Shown: positions 925 to 8,341, counted from the first letter of the stretch. The stretch: DNA of 64,000 nucleotides from Kiritimatiellia bacterium (GCA_017525475.1 JAFXST010000028.1:11656-75655), one strand, 5' to 3'. Translations and numbers: made by a program. The notes: generated by a model from the letters alone, not told the origin.

Positions 925-1048
925 TTGCCGCCATATGTCAAGCGCAAAGTTGGACTTTTTAGCCAAAAAAGGAAACCGCCCTCGATCGAGGACGGTTTCT
1001 TTTGCGTTATGCCGTATGGCTTAGGCGCGCAGTGATCGCGTGCGATTG

Positions 1049-1675
1049 CTATTTACTCAACTTGTCGACAGGCGTTATGGTCTTGGCTCGTTGCACCAAT
1101 ACATATACATTAAACACCGCCATGGCAACAAAGAATACAATGCCGGCAATGCCAAATGCAACCATCCAACGACTTGGTGAAGTGAGCAATCCCGCCGCAC
1201 TATATATCGATCCCGCAACCGATAGCATCAGCGACATCAGCATCGAGTAGATATCGCGTTGTTCAGCGCGCCGGATGCGATCGATCTCCATATCGGAGGC
1301 CAAAGCATTCAACCTGTTCGACAATCTCTGCAAGGCCTTTACAAACGGAGTCAATGCCGCAGCCCTACGAATCAATGCAAGGCGCTCAGCAAACGACATC
1401 TCCTGCACCGCTTTGACATTGCGGAAAACCGGATAGAGTTCGCGGAACAAGGCCATATTGCCATCATAGTTGGGGACTAGCTGACGCAAAACATCAAGCG
1501 GACAATTCTTGGATTCGAATGTCCGAACTATCTCAAGCTGACTGTTGATTATTGCATCAAATGCATCAAACCAAGCGCGCCGGCAATGCGATACCACTTT
1601 GGCCTTTTCGCTATCAACATCGGTATCGGCACCAGGCGCCAACACCTTGAGCAGATGATTGCCGGCATAACGCAA
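1049..1675 (-). CDS. Hypothetical protein with two C-terminal TM helices. It has a TTG start and may be the 3' part of a frameshifted gene that continues into ORF 1794..2012
   Basis: 208-aa ORF. The only in-frame start is TTG and the first ATG is at codon 74. The frame stays open upstream to 1781, while the 72-aa ORF 1794..2012 ends at 1794 in another frame. The region is AT-rich. Confidence 0.35.
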   Translation of the reverse strand: MRYAGNHLLKVLAPGADTDVDSEKAKVVSHCRRAWFDAFDAIINSQLEIVRTFESKNCPLDVLRQLVPNYDGNMALFRELYPVFRNVKAVQEMSFAERLALIRRAAALTPFVKALQRLSNRLNALASDMEIDRIRRAEQRDIYSMLMSLMLSVAGSIYSAAGLLTSPSRWMVAFGIAGIVFFVAMAVFNVYVLVQRAKTITPVDKLSK

Positions 1676-2035: not shown

Positions 2036-2070
2036 ATATTATACCATATTTTCGTCTCGTTTGTCAAGCG
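2036..2070 (-). promoter_or_regulatory. Sigma70-type promoter. -35 is TTGACA (2062-2067), spacer 18 nt, extended -10 is TGGTATAAT (2038-2046)
   Basis: Reverse complement reads cgcTTGACAaacgagacgaaaataTGGTATAATatg. It belongs to a family of 8 near-identical promoters in this window. Confidence 0.6.
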
Positions 2071-2115
2071 GAATCTGAGGATTTTGCGCATTTTTAGCCT
2101 TTGCTGGTGGCTTAA

Positions 2116-2165
2116 GTGCGACTGTGTTCGCAATCGAGAGCGAGAACATCGTGGGGTACCAGCAG
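2116..2165. repeat. Left arm of a 50-bp inverted repeat (47/50 identical to 5024-5073). It lies at the 5' end of the start-less secreted-protein gene copy
   Basis: gtgcgactgtgttcgcaatcgagagcgagaacatcgtggggtaccagcag matches the reverse complement of 5024-5073. Weaker similarity extends about 60 bp further. Confidence 0.8.
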
Positions 2166-2915
2166 GTGTCTGTTCCTAATGGCTTCTCGCTCTTTACCGC
2201 CACCTTCAAGAATATTGGCGACACCAAAACTTTTGATTTGAATTCGCTTCGTCCTACCGATCCCAACGGCAATGTTATTTCCTTGTCGGATGGCACCATC
2301 TATGTCTGCGTGCTTGACAGCTCTGGCAATTATGGTGAAAACATCAAGTGGCGTGGCAAGACCCTTGGCGGGTGGTCTAAAGATGGCACCACCATCATTG
2401 CCAACGGGGAAGTCACTATTGGTGAAGGCGTTGGTATCGCGGTCTATAATAACATCAAGGTAGACGGCGACGGCAACGAAACCACCAAAAAGACCGGTGT
2501 CGCGGCGCCAGCTAAGTTCCAAGTAAGCGGAGAAGTTGATCTTGTTTGCAAGAACTTGGCTGCTCCTGGCTTCTCGATTAGTGGCAATTCCACCCCCTCG
2601 ACCATCGATTTGACCGCTGTCAGGCCTACCGATCTTAATGGTAAAGTGCTTAACCTTTCTGATGGTACAGTTTACATTTGCCTTTTGGATACTGTTGGCA
2701 ATTATGGAGAAAACATCAAGTGGCGCGGCAAGACCCTCGGCGGTTGGTCGGTTGATGGTACTAATCTGATTTCTCAAGGTGACTATGTTATCGCTGCCGG
2801 CTCTGGCTTCGCGATATATAACAATGTCAAGGCCGATTCGGATGGAAATGAATCTACGGCCAAGAAGGCAACGGCAACGAGCATCTATCTGAGCCTGCCT
2901 CCGCCTGTGCAATAA
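2124..2915 (+). CDS. Paralog (A') of the secreted internal-repeat protein 4302..5093. It lacks an ATG and a signal peptide, so it is either a silent cassette copy or starts at GTG
   Basis: Translation IESENIVGYQQVSVPNGFS... is near-identical to mature A for its first 30 aa. The upstream in-frame sequence GFCAFLAFAGGLSATVFA is a degenerate signal peptide with no start codon, and there is a stop at 2076. It carries two internal repeats (..NYGENIKWRGKTLGGWS..) and is one of only two plus-strand genes in the window. Confidence 0.5.
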   Translation: MFAIESENIVGYQQVSVPNGFSLFTATFKNIGDTKTFDLNSLRPTDPNGNVISLSDGTIYVCVLDSSGNYGENIKWRGKTLGGWSKDGTTIIANGEVTIGEGVGIAVYNNIKVDGDGNETTKKTGVAAPAKFQVSGEVDLVCKNLAAPGFSISGNSTPSTIDLTAVRPTDLNGKVLNLSDGTVYICLLDTVGNYGENIKWRGKTLGGWSVDGTNLISQGDYVIAAGSGFAIYNNVKADSDGNESTAKKATATSIYLSLPPPVQ

Positions 2916-2961
2916 TTTTGTGCGGCAAGGGGTCGCACGAACAAACAAACAAAGGAAAACA

Positions 2962-3543
2962 ATGAAAAAACTGATAATTGGTGCAGCAATTTGTTGCGCA
3001 TCGCTGTTCGGATTTTCCGCAACAGTTAACTGGCCATCGGCCGGCATTCAGACGACTGGTGACTTTGATTCGGGCGAAGGCGATTATGCTGCCGGGTATG
3101 CCGTATATCTGTTCAATAATGCCGGCTCCTACACTCAGGCCCAGATGCTGTCGCTCATCACGGCTGGCACAGGCTGGGAAATCGCTTTTGCTAACGAAAC
3201 AAAAGCCTATCTTGGTTCTGCAGTAGCGGATGCTGATGGCGCGTTCAGCCCTGCAGTCGATGCTACTGTTGCGGATGGCGACTTCTCGGGCTACCTCGTA
3301 ATCTTCGACGCGGATAGCTATGATAAGGCAACTTATGCTTTCGTGTCCGAGACATACAATGCATCCGACAACTCCATGCATAAGATGTCGCTCGAGTACG
3401 ATGGCAAGACTTGGGTAAATGCGCTTGATTACAGCACTGCCGGTCAGGCTGGCTCCAATTGGCATGCCATTCCGGAGCCGACTTCGGGACTGCTGTTGCT
3501 CGTTGGCGGTGCGCTGCTCGCGCTCAAGCGTCGTCGCGCCTAA
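2962..3543 (+). CDS. PEP-CTERM sorting-domain protein (B')
   Basis: MKKLIIGAAICCASLFGFSATVNW is a signal peptide. The C-terminus IPEPTSGLLLLVGGALLALKRRRA has the PEP motif, a TM helix and an Arg cluster. It shares the start context caaaggaaaacaATGAAAAAACT with genes at 4254 and 5093. Confidence 0.75.
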   Translation: MKKLIIGAAICCASLFGFSATVNWPSAGIQTTGDFDSGEGDYAAGYAVYLFNNAGSYTQAQMLSLITAGTGWEIAFANETKAYLGSAVADADGAFSPAVDATVADGDFSGYLVIFDADSYDKATYAFVSETYNASDNSMHKMSLEYDGKTWVNALDYSTAGQAGSNWHAIPEPTSGLLLLVGGALLALKRRRA

Positions 3544-3666
3544 GCCATACGGCATAACGCAAAAGAAACCGTCCTCAATCGAGGGCGGTTTTCTTTTGTC
3601 TATAAACCATGAGACTGCCCCAATCGGGACAGTCTCACGAGTTAGACTATTATAGTCTCGATACGC

Positions 3667-4254
3667 TTAGGCCAAGCGACGGCGACGGAGAGCCAGCAAG
3701 GCACCGCCTACGACGAGCAACAGCCCGCTCGTAGGTTCAGGAATCGGCTCCGGACCAGAACCCGAAGAGATCGTCGACCAATCGGAAACAAGACCGGTGT
3801 AGAGGTCGCCAGCATCGCCAAAGAAGGCTCCGCCTGCAATAACAGAATCGGATACCTTTACCTGCCCGAGGGATGCGATAGTAAACGCAGAACCGTCATC
3901 TACTGACGAATCGACGAGTACTAGCATGAGACTTGCATATGCGGGACTGGCCGTGTCATCATACGACAAGCCAGCGCCAGAAAACGCCAACTCGCCATCA
4001 GCCGTGACTACACCAGCGGTAGCGTTGAGTGCAGAACCGAGCACGGTAGTTCCGGTAGTAGTAAGTGCTTCTTGCAACGCAAGTTGCGTATAAGCGCTAC
4101 CATCAAACGCATAGCCACAATAGCCAACGAGAGTGGAGTCCGCATCGCCATCAGTTTCGGTTACCAAACCGAGCGACACATTCCAGTTTACAGTTGCAGC
4201 ATTCAGGCCAATTGCCGCCAAGGCAACCGCGAACGCCATCATGAGTTTTTTCAT
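3667..4254 (-). CDS. PEP-CTERM sorting-domain protein (B), paralog of 2962..3543
   Basis: MKKLMMAFAVALAAIGLNAATVNW is a signal peptide. The C-terminus PEPIPEPTSGLLLVVGGALLALRRRRLA is a PEP-CTERM signal. Confidence 0.75.
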   Translation of the reverse strand: MKKLMMAFAVALAAIGLNAATVNWNVSLGLVTETDGDADSTLVGYCGYAFDGSAYTQLALQEALTTTGTTVLGSALNATAGVVTADGELAFSGAGLSYDDTASPAYASLMLVLVDSSVDDGSAFTIASLGQVKVSDSVIAGGAFFGDAGDLYTGLVSDWSTISSGSGPEPIPEPTSGLLLVVGGALLALRRRRLA

Positions 4255-4301
4255 TTGTTTTCCTTTGTTATGCACCTAACACCACGCTAGGCACTTAAAT
4301 C

Positions 4302-5093
4302 TTAGAGTTCCGGAGCCGGGAGGATAATCTGGGCGCCGTTGGCATTGCCGCAGTATACGATGAAGCCTTCGCCAGCATCAAACTGAACCGCATCACCTTC
4401 AATCAGAGTGTCACCATCGTACCAACCAGCCGGAGTCTTGGTGGAATAGTACTTGTACTGAGTACCATAAGTACCTTCTGAATCAACCTTGCGAACAATC
4501 ACGGCACCAGCGCTCTTCGTGGTGCCAGAGCCCGAGGTTTTCCACTCGCTACCATCGTACTGCTTGCAAGCAATAGCAGAAAGATTAATGGCAACAGGCG
4601 AGGCATTGCCAGAGAACGAATAGCCTTTGGGTACGAACTTGCCGGCAGGAACAAGACGAACCGAACCAGAAACCTGGAGAACTGCGCCATTGGCGTTGCC
4701 GCAATAAACAATCATACCCTCGCCAGACTCAAACTTAACTGCGTCGCCAGTAATCTGAGTATCACCATCGTACCAACCAACCGGGGTCTTAGTGGAATAG
4801 TATTTATACTGAGTTCCATAGGTGCCTTCAGTGTCGACCTTACGAACAATTACCGCACCAGCGCTCTTCGTAGTGCCAGAGCCCGAGGTTTTCCACTCAG
4901 AGCCATTCGACTGCTTGCAACCAATCTCGCTCAAGTTGAAATCGGTGGCGGTAATGTTCTCAAAGGTGGCGGTGAAGAAGGAGTAGCCCTTGGGGATGGA
5001 GATCTGCTGATAGCCCACGATGTTTTCGCTCTCGATTGCGAACACAGTCGCACAGAGTGCGCTCATGGCAGCTGCGCAAATAAGTTTTTTCAT
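4302..5093 (-). CDS. Secreted protein (A) of unknown function carrying a recent internal tandem duplication. It is the expressed copy of the mirrored cassette
   Basis: Signal peptide is MKKLICAAAMSALCATVFA. Two ~80-aa segments are nearly identical (DGSEWKTSGSGTTKSAGAVIVRKVD.EGTYGTQYKYYSTKTP.GWYDGDT). A consensus promoter sits 95 nt upstream. Confidence 0.7.
   Translation of the reverse strand: MKKLICAAAMSALCATVFAIESENIVGYQQISIPKGYSFFTATFENITATDFNLSEIGCKQSNGSEWKTSGSGTTKSAGAVIVRKVDTEGTYGTQYKYYSTKTPVGWYDGDTQITGDAVKFESGEGMIVYCGNANGAVLQVSGSVRLVPAGKFVPKGYSFSGNASPVAINLSAIACKQYDGSEWKTSGSGTTKSAGAVIVRKVDSEGTYGTQYKYYSTKTPAGWYDGDTLIEGDAVQFDAGEGFIVYCGNANGAQIILPAPEL
4328..4943. repeat. Intragenic tandem duplication. 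Copies at about 4328-4568 and 4703-4943 have a ~375-bp period and >90% DNA identity
   Basis: The shared segment gcaccagcgctcttcgt.gtgccagagcccgaggttttccactc is seen around 4510-4555 and 4860-4905. Confidence 0.7.
5024..5073. repeat. Right arm of the 50-bp inverted repeat, inside the 5' coding region of gene A just after its signal peptide
   Basis: Its reverse complement gtgcgactgtgttcgcaatcgagagcgaaaacatcgtgggctatcagcag matches 2116-2165. Confidence 0.8.
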
Positions 5094-5191
5094 AGTTGTT
5101 TTCCTTTGTTTTTACCCTTGGTCGGTAGAACCGCATGCGATCACCTGCCGCAAGTCATGCCTACTATTCCTTAGGATGAGAGTATTATACC

Positions 5192-5226
5192 ATATTGAGG
5201 GCTTGTTTGTCAATAGGGTTTTTCAG
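5192..5226 (-). promoter_or_regulatory. Sigma70-type promoter. -35 TTGACA (5218-5223), spacer 18 nt, extended -10 TGGTATAAT
   Basis: Reverse complement reads ccctaTTGACAaacaagccctcaataTGGTATAATactc. It drives gene A (start 5093). Confidence 0.6.
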
Positions 5227-5474
5227 GTTTTTTGACGAACATACTGGCCCCAGTCGCCGCGAAGAAGCCCGGCAAACGAAAGGTCTTCGTCGATATCGGG
5301 CCAGTGCAAGCCATCCTCATCCACTTCGATATGGACGAGTTGCTCCGGCGTTGCTCGTTCAAGCCGCCAGTTACCGGCAATGGGGAAAGAGAAAGACACG
5401 TCATTGGGCAGGCGGACATTAAAGCGCGAATCGGCAAACGACACGGCCGCCTTGTCTTCAGTCAAAGTATTCAT
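5223..5474 (-). CDS. DUF2442-family small protein, the second gene of a DUF4160/DUF2442 pair
   Basis: 83 aa. ..NDVSFSFPIAGNWRLERATPEQL..DEDGLHWPDIDEDLSFAGLL.. is typical of DUF2442. It overlaps the upstream DUF4160 gene by 17 nt. Confidence 0.6.
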   Translation of the reverse strand: MNTLTEDKAAVSFADSRFNVRLPNDVSFSFPIAGNWRLERATPEQLVHIEVDEDGLHWPDIDEDLSFAGLLRGDWGQYVRQKT

Positions 5475-5691
5475 GCCATTTCCTCCTTATGGTTTCGATG
5501 TTTTCCTCCGCGAGGTCTTGCGCCTTGCGGAGCTCCTGCACTTTCATGCCTTTCGACTCCAACAGTTGCACGTCGTTCGAGACATCGAACTTAGCCTTGC
5601 CAGACCCCGTCTTGACGTGAACGTGTATCGGTTCATGTTCGTTGGAAAAGAAATAAAAATTATAACCATCCTTGGTAAATACGTTTGGCAT
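5458..5691 (-). CDS. DUF4160-family small protein, the first gene of a DUF4160/DUF2442 pair
   Basis: 77 aa. The conserved motif is NEHEPIHVHV. A consensus promoter lies 20 nt upstream. Confidence 0.6.
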   Translation of the reverse strand: MPNVFTKDGYNFYFFSNEHEPIHVHVKTGSGKAKFDVSNDVQLLESKGMKVQELRKAQDLAEENIETIRRKWHEYFD

Positions 5692-5715: not shown

Positions 5716-5750
5716 ATATTATACCATATTTCCGTCTTACTTGTCAAGCG
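5716..5750 (-). promoter_or_regulatory. Sigma70-type promoter. -35 TTGACA (5742-5747), spacer 18 nt, extended -10 TGGTATAAT
   Basis: Reverse complement reads cgcTTGACAagtaagacggaaataTGGTATAATatcc. Confidence 0.6.
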
Positions 5751-5782: not shown

Positions 5783-5814
5783 CCCTTCCGTGCCTTCCGT
5801 GTATTCCGTGGTTA
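5783..5814. repeat. Left copy of a ~32-bp direct repeat holding three TTCCGTG heptamers at 9-bp spacing. Its partner is at 6056-6087
   Basis: cccttccgtgccttccgtgtattccgtggtta compared with cccttccgtgaattccgtgtattccgtggtta. Confidence 0.7.
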
Positions 5815-5850
5815 AATAACGAAAGTGCCTGGCGGGCATCGTGGTGGACA

Positions 5851-6031
5851 CATCTCAACGGTGACACCTTTTGACCAATACGGTGTCACCTTTTCATCAA
5901 AACGGTGTCACCTTTTGACCAAAACGGTGTCACCTTTTCATCCAAACGGTGACACCTTTTGCATCAAACGGTGTCACCTTTTGTATCAAACGGTGTCACC
6001 TTTTATATCGAAAGGTGTCACCGTTGAGATG
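5851..6031. repeat. About 180-bp element. Eight tandem 22-23-bp units (ACGGTGTCACCTTTT plus 7-8 variable nt, dyad core GGTG(T/A)CACC) are bounded by perfect 18-bp terminal inverted repeats CATCTCAACGGTGACACC
   Basis: Direct reading of 5851-6031 shows this. The units carry no unique spacers, so it is not CRISPR-like. Plus-strand ORFs 5825..6130 and 5949..6239 are just translations of the repeat. Confidence 0.75.
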
Positions 6032-6055
6032 CATCTACCACGAGACAAGGATAGC

Positions 6056-6087
6056 CCCTTCCGTGAATTCCGTGTATTCCGTGGTTA
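6056..6087. repeat. Right copy of the ~32-bp TTCCGTG-triplet direct repeat
   Basis: It matches 5783-5814 with 2 mismatches. Confidence 0.7.
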
Positions 6088-6093
6088 TATTAG

Positions 6094-6145
6094 AGGGAAC
6101 AGGGAAGAGGGAACAGGGAAGAGGGAATAGGGAACAGGGAAGAGG
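6094..6145. repeat. Tandem heptamer repeats GGGAACA/GGGAAGA. On the transcribed minus strand they read CCCUCUU/CCCUGUU, which is C-rich and G-poor. They lie directly 3' of the stop of gene 6146..6859
   Basis: About 7 units abut stop codon 6146-6148. The composition resembles a rho-utilisation (rut) tract. Confidence 0.5.
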
Positions 6146-6859
6146 TCAGGGCTTGAAGCCCATGGGCGAGAGGATGGCGGCGGCGTCTTCAGGGGCGAGG
6201 GCGCCGCTTTGCACCCGGCCCAAGATCTGGGCGCGGTAGGTGCGCTCCATGGCTTGGCGTTCGTCGAGGAACGCGGCCAGGCGCTCGAGACCGTTGGACA
6301 TGGCCACATATTTGCGCGCTTCGTCCTTGATACCCACCAAAATGCGCTTTAGCTCCACGAGTTCGGCGGGATCGGCGGGGTCGAAGACGACTAGCGCCTT
6401 AAGCCCATCAACCGTAAGTTCGCTATCGGCCACCTCCAGCGTTTCGCCCGGCATGGCATAGCGCGCGAGGTAGCGATCGGTGGGGTTGGGGAGCAAGGAG
6501 GCCAAATCGAGCGCGCCCAAATCCACAAAGTGGCGAGGCGAGGCCGTACCCACGATGGCCGAGGCGACGAGAGCCTTTTCGGCGCGCTGCTTGAGCGCTT
6601 GAGGGGCGCGGGCCGAGGTGGCCCAAAGCGCCACGGCAACGCCCAAAGTAAGCGCCACCAACAAAAGGAGCCACATATCGCGCTTGCGCAGGCCCTTCAA
6701 ACCCAAGCGCACCACGGGCGCAATGCGCTCGGTTACGCGAATGGGGCGTATGCCTTGGCGGCGAAGCTCGGAGTAAGCCTCGTCTTTGCCGGGCGCGGAT
6801 ATGATACCCTCGTGCTTGAGCCCGGCGGAATCCTGGTAAGTATAGAGGAAAGTCCTCAC
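6146..6859 (-). CDS. Hypothetical membrane protein. Its N-terminal cytoplasmic domain resembles the GspF/PilC N-terminal domain and is followed by one TM helix
   Basis: MRTFLYTYQDSAGLKHEGIISAPGKDEAYSELRRQGIRPIRV follows the F-Y-x-D-x-G...L-R-x-x-G pattern of T2SS-F N-termini. The start forms an ATGA overlap with the upstream gene. Confidence 0.45.
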   Translation of the reverse strand: MRTFLYTYQDSAGLKHEGIISAPGKDEAYSELRRQGIRPIRVTERIAPVVRLGLKGLRKRDMWLLLLVALTLGVAVALWATSARAPQALKQRAEKALVASAIVGTASPRHFVDLGALDLASLLPNPTDRYLARYAMPGETLEVADSELTVDGLKALVVFDPADPAELVELKRILVGIKDEARKYVAMSNGLERLAAFLDERQAMERTYRAQILGRVQSGALAPEDAAAILSPMGFKP

Positions 6860-7545
6860 TTGCGCTCTTGGGCAAGCTCGGCTTCGACTTCGGCCGCGAT
6901 TTTGCGCTCGCGCTCGTCGGTGGGCGCGGGTGCCAGGCCTTCAAAGCAGGCGTCGCGGTAGGACATGGTCTGGAACTGGGTGATGCCGAGGCTCTTGAGG
7001 TTGGGGAAGATGGCCATGAGCGAATCGAAGGTCACGAGTTCGCCGGCCGCATCGAGATCGGATACGGAATACACGGGGCGCATGGACGAGGCCGTATACT
7101 TGGAGACGGCGCCGCCCAAGACGATGGTGGCGACGCGCAATACTTCCTTCTCGAGCTGCTTGGGCGCGAGGCCCTGCGCATTGACGACGCCCCACTTTTC
7201 CTCCATGGCGATGAGCGAGAGGGGGAGCGCGGGGTCGCTGGCCACGAACACGGCCGCGTTGGCGCCGCCCATTTTGTCCTTGGCGCCAACCAGCGCGAAT
7301 TCGCCCTGGCGCAGCTCGGCGTTGATCATCATGATGTTGCCGATCTTCTTGGCGGCGGTGGCAAGCGGCTCTTCGGGAGCTCCCGCGGCATTGACGATGG
7401 CGAACACGCCTTCGCCGCCGATGGTCACCATGGGGCCTTCGTCGACCGGCGGGGGTGGCGGCGCTTTGGGGGCGGCGGCGCGCTTGGGCGCGGCAACGGC
7501 GGTAAAGGCGGCGGCAAGCGCCAGGACGACAACTAGTTTGTGCAT
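6856..7545 (-). CDS. Secreted hypothetical protein
   Basis: True start is MHKLVVVLALAAAFTAVAAP with GGAGG 8 nt upstream. It includes a Pro-rich linker. Confidence 0.5.
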   Translation of the reverse strand: MHKLVVVLALAAAFTAVAAPKRAAAPKAPPPPPVDEGPMVTIGGEGVFAIVNAAGAPEEPLATAAKKIGNIMMINAELRQGEFALVGAKDKMGGANAAVFVASDPALPLSLIAMEEKWGVVNAQGLAPKQLEKEVLRVATIVLGGAVSKYTASSMRPVYSVSDLDAAGELVTFDSLMAIFPNLKSLGITQFQTMSYRDACFEGLAPAPTDERERKIAAEVEAELAQERK

Positions 7546-7561
7546 GGTTTGTTCCTCCAAA

Positions 7562-8341
7562 TCAGTAGATTTCGCGGGTTTCTTCGTTGTAGCGCAGGGG
7601 CTTGATGCCCTCGGCGTCGAGCACCTCGTTGACCTTTTCCACAAACTCGGCCGCGAGTTCGGGCTCTTCCTCGATTACCTGCTCCACTTCGTCGCGGTAG
7701 TTGTTGCGCTTTTCGAAGCCCTTCTTGAGCTCCTGGAAGTAGAACTGCATGAAGTCGTCGGGGTCGCCGCCCTCCTTGATGAACTCGAGCATCTCGCGCT
7801 TGGCGTAGCCCACCATTTCCTTGGCGTTCTTGGCCTCCTCGGAATCGGTCTCCTTGATCTCGTTGTGCGAGATGAGGATGGCCACCAGATTGTCGCGCTC
7901 CTCCTCGCTGAGGCTCGGGATGGGCATGGGCATGTCGCCGAGCTCGGTGTGGCAAATCCACGAGAGCAGCTGCTCGGTGCCGGTTTTGAAGGTGCGGTTG
8001 GTGATGCGGTCCCAATCGATATCCTTGCGCACGTCGTAGATGGTGAGCGGGCGGCCATCGGGCCCGAAGCCGAACGGAGCATCGGCGGTGGGGGCTTGGG
8101 AGAGGGTTTGGGCGAGCTCGTGCACCGGGGCGAGATCGGCCGGCTTATCGGCGATGGCGCCCGCGATGGCGCGGCGCTCCTTGGCGGGTTTGGCGCCCGG
8201 AAGCGTGGGGGCGCCGAACATCACGACCCAGGCGGCGACGGCGCCACCCACCACGACGATTAGCGCGATAAGCCCCCGCAAGACGCCGCCGCGTTTGGGC
8301 TTTTGGGCGGGAGCGGTTGTTTTACCGGTATTCCAAGCCAT
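7562..8341 (-). CDS. Membrane-anchored hypothetical protein with an acidic C-terminal region. It is the first gene of a three-gene operon of unknowns
   Basis: 259 aa with an N-terminal TM (LIALIVVVGGAVAAWVV). A consensus promoter lies about 30 nt upstream. Confidence 0.5.
   Translation of the reverse strand: MAWNTGKTTAPAQKPKRGGVLRGLIALIVVVGGAVAAWVVMFGAPTLPGAKPAKERRAIAGAIADKPADLAPVHELAQTLSQAPTADAPFGFGPDGRPLTIYDVRKDIDWDRITNRTFKTGTEQLLSWICHTELGDMPMPIPSLSEEERDNLVAILISHNEIKETDSEEAKNAKEMVGYAKREMLEFIKEGGDPDDFMQFYFQELKKGFEKRNNYRDEVEQVIEEEPELAAEFVEKVNEVLDAEGIKPLRYNEETREIY

Follow-up and report, generated by a model that had tools for sequence, protein, structure and literature searches.

Mirrored cassettes for a secreted protein and a PEP-CTERM protein as a candidate multi-cassette inversion switch in a Kiritimatiellia bacterium

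Why does a Kiritimatiellia genome keep two diverged copies of a two-gene module facing each other, when only one of them has a promoter? The copies lie in the first 6 kb of a 64-kb stretch of one assembly (GCA_017525475.1, JAFXST010000028.1:11656-75655; hereafter the window), and each consists of a gene for a secreted protein (A or A') followed by a gene for a PEP-CTERM protein (B or B'). Reading the DNA of this locus and of its relatives, we put the probability at roughly three in four that the modules are cassettes of a multi-cassette inversion switch, or shufflon, that varies a pair of cell-surface proteins and of which the window would hold one half.

Coordinates are counted from window position 1 unless an L-numbered locus is named; these loci lie on related contigs, a number of them identified through homologues of A'. 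Exact protein matches assign the organism to a Kiritimatiellae metagenome-assembled genome (MBR4522966.1 and others, locus tags IKO64_01795-01850). The listing of open reading frames (ORFs) agreed with the first-pass annotation of the window in placing the two mirrored modules at 2124-3543 on the plus strand and 3667-5093 on the minus strand. The plus-strand module comprises A' (called as a gene at 2124-2915, with GTG 2124 chosen as the start by gene callers) and B' (2962-3543), and the body of A' (2166-2915) belongs to an open frame that runs intact for 278 codons (2079-2915). The minus-strand module comprises A (whole gene 4302-5093; body 4302-5003), a secreted, two-repeat, all-beta protein that is by its sequence the currently expressed form, and B (3667-4254). 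B' and B scored 23.0 and 21.7 bits against the PEP-CTERM model TIGR02595, for which the cut-off is 16 bits; both proteins begin with MKKL and end in PEPTSGLLLLVGGALLALKRRRA, with an N-terminal signal peptide, a PEP motif, a transmembrane helix and a basic tail, and B is accordingly predicted to be an exosortase substrate. B has its own ribosome-binding site and signal peptide and appears to be co-transcribed with A.

A and A' are each an internal duplication, as the repeat search showed, and neither matched a Pfam or NCBIfam family. The AlphaFold2 (AF2) model of A was all-beta with a predicted local distance difference test score (pLDDT) of 62, and gave no meaningful fold match in the PDB. The proteins share about 40% of their residues, in line with the strong divergence that had been noted outside a 50-nucleotide (nt) segment. 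A and B together probably form a variable surface structure under selection by phages, predators or the host.

The system extends beyond the window. A portion of the European Nucleotide Archive (ENA) contig k141_417894 (L004) is 99.985% identical to the window over 13.5 kb and runs about 7 kb further left, the window position being the L004 position minus 7039. In that extension, 1.2-4.1 kb left of window position 1, we found another mirrored pair, with A1'-B1' reading in the plus direction and B1-A1 in the minus direction, so that the proposed search for further silent cassettes raised the system to at least four. The source contig thus carries four A-B cassettes in two convergent pairs, two of the four inside the window. 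The four A-type genes share the same core segment and alternate in orientation (+ - + -), and A alone has a start codon and a promoter, the other three cassettes having neither.

The promoter of A is a perfect 12/12 sigma-70 match on the minus strand (TTGACA, an 18-nt spacer and a TG-extended TATAAT). The consensus promoter claimed for the right-hand copy was therefore present, at 5184-5213, and its earlier placement at 5192-5226 was only approximately right; in the L008 and L010 expression leaders the corresponding region is 97% conserved. The leader that follows (5054-5183, minus strand) contains the 5' untranslated region, the ribosome-binding site AAGGAA (5102-5107), the ATG (5091-5093) and the first 13 signal-peptide codons, MKKLICAAAMSAL, and A accordingly starts with an ATG and the full signal peptide MKKLICAAAMSALCATVFA that had been described for it. 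The silent leader of A' (2076-2115, plus strand) opens with an in-frame TGA (2076-2078) and continues as a start-less signal-peptide remnant, GFCAFLAFAGGL; the upstream frame has no ATG, GTG or TTG before GTG 2124, and its remnant leader reads GFCAFLAFAGGLSATV. The missing ATG, the stop at 2076 and the degenerate remnant had all been read correctly at first pass. There was no plus-strand promoter ahead of A' and no ribosome-binding site before GTG 2124. The promoter P2 (2038-2067, minus strand, also a 12/12 match) points away from A' and drives the minus-strand ORFs at 1049-2012. It adjoins the silent leader in L008, L012 and L019 too, travelling with it, and in these three loci the silent leader of A' precedes other bodies. 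Promoter, ribosome-binding site, ATG and signal-peptide start were found together on one cassette only per genome, and all silent leaders contain in-frame stops or lack any start codon; those of the second pair lie at L004 2860-2897 and 5836-5880.

Two further features accompany these promoters and leaders. Within 5 kb there are four 12/12 sigma-70 promoters, every one of them on the minus strand (913-941, 2038-2067, 5184-5213 and 5718-5747). Three share about 70% identity across 48 nt (ATTATACCATATT...TTGTCAA) and a -10 box extended by TG, an unusually stereotyped module. A weak hairpin with a T-run (2068-2087, plus strand) lies within the conserved silent leader just upstream of A' and could insulate the silent cassette from read-through.

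The core shared by all cassettes sits at the junction of leader and body. The repeat search recovered inverted arms of 110 nt at 2116-2225 and 4944-5053 (82% complementary), within which 2116-2165 and the reverse complement of 5004-5053 match at 47 of 50 positions (94%). The 94%-identical 50-nt inverted arms reported earlier were confirmed in extent and, for the left arm (2116-2165), in position; the right arm had been set at 5024-5073, an overshoot of 20 nt to the right. Of a 26-mer taken from the core, the window contains exactly two copies, against none expected from 100 shuffles. At the expression site, the core (segment s4, 5004-5053, minus strand) encodes CATVFAIESENIVGYQQ, corresponding to precursor residues 14-30, and spans the predicted signal-peptidase site between VFA and IES; segment s3 (2116-2165, plus strand) is its 47/50 counterpart in the silent cassette. 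These cores enclose a segment that does not include the promoter at 5184-5213, and the locus is in this respect not a promoter inverton.

A core of about 45-50 nt beginning with GTGCGACTGTGTTCGCAATCGAGAGCGARAACATCGTGGG stands at the 5' end of every cassette, with the conserved peptide ATVFAIESENIVGYQ. In a four-way alignment of the A genes, the best 30-nt block was 96-100% identical in all six pairs, compared with 20-50% for flanks and bodies, and conservation collapsed about 50-110 nt from the core start. Ten cassettes have the core in common; across their ten bodies, 44 nt contain a single polymorphism, and synonymous positions are conserved as well. UBA3783, a sister species (L013, L014), shares the layout and differs in the core, GTGCGACTGTGGCGAARGCGGACG...ATCGTSGGCTATCAG, which is uniform within that genome. 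This pattern, different between species and uniform within a genome, points to concerted evolution of the site. On its left the core has a sharp edge, GTGCGRCWGTG, which three lineages share, whereas the remainder differs between them. A dyad in the core (TGCGA-N6-TCGCA) is present in this lineage and was not used as evidence because it is not conserved in the UBA3783 and L024 cores. Scans with the exact core gave no match among the GTDB species genomes and a single locus, L012, among the metagenomes of the Joint Genome Institute (JGI).

A second shared element lies in the middle of each pair. In the window this central segment, c, covers 293 nt (3454-3746) and comprises the 3' ends of B' and B, which encode the PEP-CTERM anchors, together with terminator hairpins, namely a bidirectional one at 3565-3592 and a second at about 3611-3636. 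The corresponding stretch in the middle of the other mirrored pair is 96% identical to it. Opposite A1-B1 stands B1'-A1' in L004; L010 has an A'-like cassette there, and L017 and L019 have an L008-type B. Pair partners thus change across c among strains, which indicates that recombination also takes place in the central segment. An orphan inverted copy of the left half of c, containing the PEP-CTERM 3' end of B' and the terminator, was found at 958-1029 on the minus strand (72 nt, 92% complementary to 3535-3606). A 63-nt core of this copy is 98% identical to L004 4316-4378, and it is detached from any PEP-CTERM gene; it is probably the scar of a lost cassette or of an earlier rearrangement.

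Comparison of strains and samples, at 84-99.3% identity, revealed that leaders and bodies have been exchanged. The expression leader precedes the A body in L002, L003 and L004. In L010 and L011 the core links an A'-like body and B' to the expression leader of the window (93.5% identity, MKKLICAAAMSALCATV included), and in L010 the junction of leader, core and A'-like body is visible at the nucleotide level. L008 and L009 have the identical leader and the same flanking gene trio with a T2SSF_N domain (described below), with a body type absent from this strain; in L008 three start-less cassettes follow the expressed one in alternating orientation, making four in total. In L017 and L018 the expression leader is joined to the A1 body. 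The last 29 nt of the leader are identical on four different A bodies (L004, L008, L010 and L017).

The A1 body gave the closest comparison. P0022, a 271-amino-acid (aa) member of the A1 cluster encoded in L017 (ENA) and L018 (JGI), consists of the expression leader and the A1 body, and the same body, identical at 254 of 254 residues, stands behind the silent leader with its outward-facing promoter in L019 (ENA) and L012 (JGI). The DNA of L017 and L019 is 99.3% identical over 2031 nt; this similarity sets in precisely at the core's first base, and upstream of it the two are unrelated. The reverse case was found in L007. Its LpxI-adjacent far-left slot, which in the source strain belongs to A1', is taken by the A-B cassette of the window, turned round and lacking a start codon (L007 9993-11375 corresponds to L004 12092-10710 reversed, at 96.8%); the silent form of the A body is P0015. 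This arrangement is the expected product of an inversion between the outermost cores, and it supplied the flipped arrangement for which a comparison of orthologous loci had been proposed. The first-pass annotation had also held that inversion would place A'-B' behind the promoter and signal peptide: exchange of this kind between strains is borne out by the orthologous loci (L010/L011, L017/L018, L008/L009 and L007). A first impression that crossover points differed between L007 and L010 was dropped, allelic differences between strains explaining the pattern equally well. Each type of junction occurred in at least two independent assemblies (L010 and L011; L017 and L018; L012 and L019; L008 and L009; L002, L003 and L004), which argues against chimeric contigs.

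The silent cassettes also bear signs of use. All silent frames are intact, and the ratio of nonsynonymous to synonymous substitution rates (dN/dS) was 0.07-0.12 for cassette alleles whatever slot they occupied, including a silent-versus-silent pair; for A' against the expressed A'-like allele of L010 it was 0.08. With values of about 0.1, the silent cassettes are not pseudogenes, and purifying selection on start-less genes implies that they are expressed from time to time. Such selection is what an expression-site switch would predict and what a pseudogene reading would not.

Under the proposed mechanism, the expression site (5004-5213, minus strand) would supply the promoter, the ribosome-binding site, the ATG and 13 signal-peptide codons. 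Reciprocal recombination between its core and an oppositely oriented silent core would invert the intervening 2.8-9 kb; a new A body would thereby come under the promoter, in frame with the start of the signal peptide, and the downstream B would switch along with it. Nested inversions could bring any cassette to the expression site, and the 293-nt central segments could allow further re-assortment of half-pairs. From these features of the DNA we infer that switching may recur within a clone. Three lineages show this alternation of orientation together with one expression site.

Several observations weigh against this switch. All of the exchange evidence comes from comparing strains or samples, none of it from two orientations in one sample, and crossover positions could not be fixed to one nucleotide from the available junctions. 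The flipped products of this strain (the signal peptide joined to A', to A1' or to A1, and a start-less A) were absent from a collection of 15 billion proteins, although only about five assemblies carry the strain. Deletions would be possible as well, because two of the four cores point in the same direction as the expression site. Neither the 64-kb window nor the 10 kb on either side of the locus in L004 and L008 contains a recombinase gene, and the only DNA-breaking enzyme nearby is a RAYT-like Y1 transposase that is absent from the L008 version of the locus. The nearby invertase for which a search had been suggested was thus not found.

Two candidates were set aside in that search. The RAYT-like Y1 transposase (1-903) is missing from the L008 and L019 loci, and we know of no HUH enzyme that inverts double-stranded DNA; a 334-aa gene beside the L008 array encodes a Fic protein instead. 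A third candidate came from sister arrays. In UBA3783 a 316-aa ORF without a Pfam match (L014 8912-9862) adjoins a silent cassette, and in L024 a member of the same family (612-1559) directly precedes a series of A-type cassettes, at least five in number, that alternate in orientation. A single one of these has an ATG and a signal peptide (MKKLTIGAISALCAAVAFGDVVSSDVVGY), and the others begin at the shared core. This family of about 315 aa (P0026) comprises at least 805 protein clusters at 90% identity, mostly from Kiritimatiellae in rumen and gut metagenomes and many of them on short, broken contigs. It matched the phrog_1 integrase with an E-value of 8.6e-13, and its AF2 model (pLDDT 81) matched IntI, XerH, lambda Int, Tn1549 Int and Cre with a Foldseek probability of 1.0. 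The invariant residues include R162, K189, R268 and Y298/Y299, which by inspection were assigned to the catalytic R-K-(H)-R-(H/W)-Y set. On the strength of the phrog_1 match and its modelled structure, the family is identified as tyrosine recombinases with the integrase/Cre fold that escape Pfam. Other members occur in unrelated contexts, for example next to AbiE or AAA_14 islands. No homologue was found in the window, L004, L007 or the examined part of L008; a recombinase thus adjoins the sister arrays in L014 and L024, with none found near the locus in the window lineage. If the switch exists, we see an even chance that it works by conservative site-specific inversion through a tyrosine recombinase of this Kiritimatiellae type encoded elsewhere in the genome.

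The same inversions could instead arise without a dedicated enzyme, if RecA-dependent homologous recombination, or else gene conversion, acted on the 45-50-nt core and the 293-nt segment, much as in Campylobacter fetus sap. This is the main alternative, possible and in our judgement rather unlikely. The lack of a linked recombinase in this lineage speaks for it, as do the re-assortment of the 96%-identical central segments among strains, the concerted evolution of the core within genomes, which fits gene conversion, and the orphan c fragment with other scars of homology-driven rearrangement. An identity of 44-50 nt is close to the lower limit for efficient recombination by RecA. Homology alone sits poorly with a left core edge kept sharp in three lineages while the rest differs, with a tyrosine recombinase adjoining the sister arrays, and with a shared core far shorter than the conserved 5' regions of sap, at about 600 bp. 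The two routes would leave different junctions: a tyrosine recombinase would exchange strands in a fixed region of 6-8 nt near GTGCGACTGTG, and homologous recombination would scatter crossovers over the 50 nt.

A more sceptical alternative is that there is no programmed switching and that the locus is static in a clone, reshuffled on evolutionary timescales only by DNA exchange between strains and homologous replacement via the conserved ends. That the alternative junctions all come from different samples and strains, that the flipped products of the exact strain were not found, and that the cassettes lie in a low-GC, TA-rich variable island would all fit it. We nevertheless regard it as improbable. 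Cassettes without promoter or start codon keep intact frames at a dN/dS of about 0.1, silent-versus-silent comparison included, and this requires regular expression; strict alternation around a single expression site is found in three lineages; and the L017 and L019 cassettes are only 0.7% apart yet stand behind different leaders.

A reading of the modules as ordinary convergent paralogues, in which the core reflects protein constraint at the signal-peptide cleavage site and A' is a truncated pseudogene or a product of GTG 2124, is largely refuted. The core does encode a conserved peptide, and gene callers do start A' at GTG 2124, but that codon has neither promoter nor ribosome-binding site, and the translation of A' as an ordinary paralogue, raised earlier as a possible refutation of the switch, is very unlikely; moreover, the core is conserved at synonymous positions, the sister species has a different peptide and core, the dN/dS is about 0.08, and identical bodies were found with and without the expression leader. 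Least credible is that the alternative junctions are chimeric metagenome contigs from collapsed repeats, since, although many informative contigs are short (1-5 kb) and end near repeats, every junction type was reproduced in at least two samples or assemblers and, by inference from the k141 contig names, the 44-50-nt core is shorter than the final MEGAHIT k-mer.

The surroundings of the cassettes set them apart from the rest of the window. The guanine-cytosine (GC) content is 0.48-0.58 over 1-6 kb and 0.60-0.68 elsewhere, consistent with the low-GC segment beside a HUH-transposase gene that had been described, the neighbour being the RAYT-like Y1/HUH (IS200-type) transposase gene. All other recognisable window genes are on the minus strand, leaving A' and B' as the only plus-strand genes, as had been stated; the remainder of the window contains housekeeping genes. 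Rfam and tRNA scans of 1-10 kb gave no matches.

On the left, the transposase gene is flanked by a 110-nt inverted repeat (92%; window 1034-1143 and L004 6671-6780). The right arm of this repeat forms the 3' end of a 208-aa membrane-protein ORF (1049-1675), an overlap suggestive of an earlier inversion or insertion. In L008 and L019 the corresponding spacer lacks the transposase gene, which is not a conserved part of the locus. The minus-strand region 1049-2012 contains fragmented ORFs of 208, 56 and 72 aa, a perfect 23-nt direct repeat (1253-1275 and 1728-1750) and a repeated peptide, RRAEQRD; these features suggest a gene that has decayed or been rearranged within the spacer separating the cassette pairs. 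Further left, 4.2-5.2 kb outside the window, 9-nt tandem repeats of the CCGGATTAT type (L004 1865-1938 and 2702-2872) stand on either side of a gene of the 23S_rRNA_IVP family (an Avd-like four-helix protein) and reach as far as the leftmost silent cassette's leader; L020 too has a gene of this family, next to the tyrosine recombinase.

On the right, a DUF2442/DUF4160 gene pair (5223-5691) lies directly upstream of the expression-site promoter, and a Fic/Phd pair takes the same place in L008. The spacers between cassette pairs hold PIN, AbiEii or DUF3800 genes in different strains, and these varying neighbours mark the locus as a hotspot for toxin-antitoxin or defence-like modules. Between the toxin-antitoxin-like genes and the T2SSF_N gene lies a repeat region (5783-6142) with a tandem array of six to eight 22-nt units arranged about the palindrome GGTGTCACC (5829-6043). 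This array also forms an inverted repeat of 100 nt (5839-5938 versus 5944-6043) and sits between 35-nt direct repeats (5783-5817 and 6056-6090), which are followed by 14-nt AGGGAACAGGGAAG repeats (6094-6142); one related unit is found beside the RAYT-like gene at L004 6842-6878. The array could be a candidate protein-binding array. The expression site is further flanked by a trio of genes (6146-8341) encoding proteins of 237 aa (with the T2SSF_N domain), 229 aa and 259 aa, which recurs in L008 and in UBA3783 (L013), with a similar trio beside a member of the recombinase family in L020. The trio may be functionally tied to the variable A and B proteins.

The Kiritimatiellota are abundant in rumen and gut and almost uncultured, and to our knowledge no mode of surface variation is known for them. 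Keyword searches of the literature found no report of inversion systems in the phylum among the titles listed, the one relevant match being a paper on the promoter invertons of Akkermansia. If the switch is real, the locus is a concrete example of programmed surface variation in this group, one that would tie PEP-CTERM/exosortase cargo to allele switching and not to ON/OFF promoter flips, with a large, unannotated tyrosine-recombinase family as its likely engine. We suggest tentatively, at slightly less than even odds, that rumen and gut Kiritimatiellae share a previously undescribed, lineage-wide shufflon family, characterised by a site over the signal-peptidase region, a terminator segment as a second point of re-assortment and trans-acting tyrosine recombinases invisible to Pfam; surface variation would then be a major and so far unseen feature of an uncultured clade. 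Loci of this kind break metagenome assemblies and inflate apparent strain diversity, and the core motif would let PhaseFinder or long-read mapping quantify switching in existing rumen datasets.

Among known systems, the vsa genes of Mycoplasma pulmonis and the vpma genes of Mycoplasma agalactiae offer a close parallel, inversion there placing the promoter and amino-terminal coding DNA of an expression site onto silent genes (PMC4534519; PMC11868660). The locus described here likewise has a single expression site with promoter and signal-peptide DNA, silent genes without promoter or 5' end, and a short site inside the 5' coding region. It differs in that the units are two-gene operons (a secreted A and a PEP-CTERM B) arranged as convergent pairs around a conserved terminator segment, in that no recombinase equivalent to HvsR or Xer1 is adjacent in this lineage, and in that the host is a diderm member of the Kiritimatiellota whose proteins are not lipoproteins.

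In C. fetus, at its sap locus, the conserved 5' regions are hundreds of bp long (about 600 bp), each homologue has its own start codon, and inversion is mainly RecA-dependent. Here, in contrast, only 45-50 nt are shared, and inversion would leave the start codon and the beginning of the signal peptide in place at the expression site; instead of long conserved 5' regions and complete homologues, we found short conservation and start-less silent cassettes. As far as the titles of the references go (Tu et al. 2001 and Dworkin & Blaser 1997, in PMC1950947), the S-layer protein genes of C. fetus undergo nested DNA inversion. The two systems have in common one promoter, several promoter-less homologues with a conserved 5' segment, nested inversions (proposed for the present locus) and no adjacent invertase.

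The R64/IncI shufflon, served by Rci, consists of invertible segments that combine a constant 5' part with alternative 3' parts through asymmetric short repeats with one conserved arm. It swaps the C-terminal tips of the PilV pilin at 19-bp sfx sites near the 3' part of the gene. Multiple invertible segments, a constant 5' part and short asymmetric repeats conserved in one arm would be shared with the present locus, whose sister arrays have a tyrosine recombinase at the array end. Unlike in R64, nearly the whole mature protein and a second gene would be swapped, at a site beside the signal-peptide cleavage point, and the recombinase would be unlinked in the window lineage. Clustered alternative alleles, short inverted repeats at their boundaries and one constant 5' part nonetheless place the locus with shufflons, a term defined in PMC11868660.

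In Akkermansia muciniphila (Verrucomicrobiota), small promoter invertons control PEP-CTERM genes (PMC11892184), and intragenic invertons recode genes in gut bacteria (PMC10028968). Akkermansia resembles the present case as a gut bacterium of the PVC (Planctomycetes-Verrucomicrobia-Chlamydiae) superphylum with PEP-CTERM surface proteins under inversion control. There, promoters of about 150 bp flip between inverted repeats of about 16 nt and turn genes ON or OFF, whereas here the promoter is fixed and cassette segments of 2.8-9 kb would be inverted to bring alternative alleles into expression.

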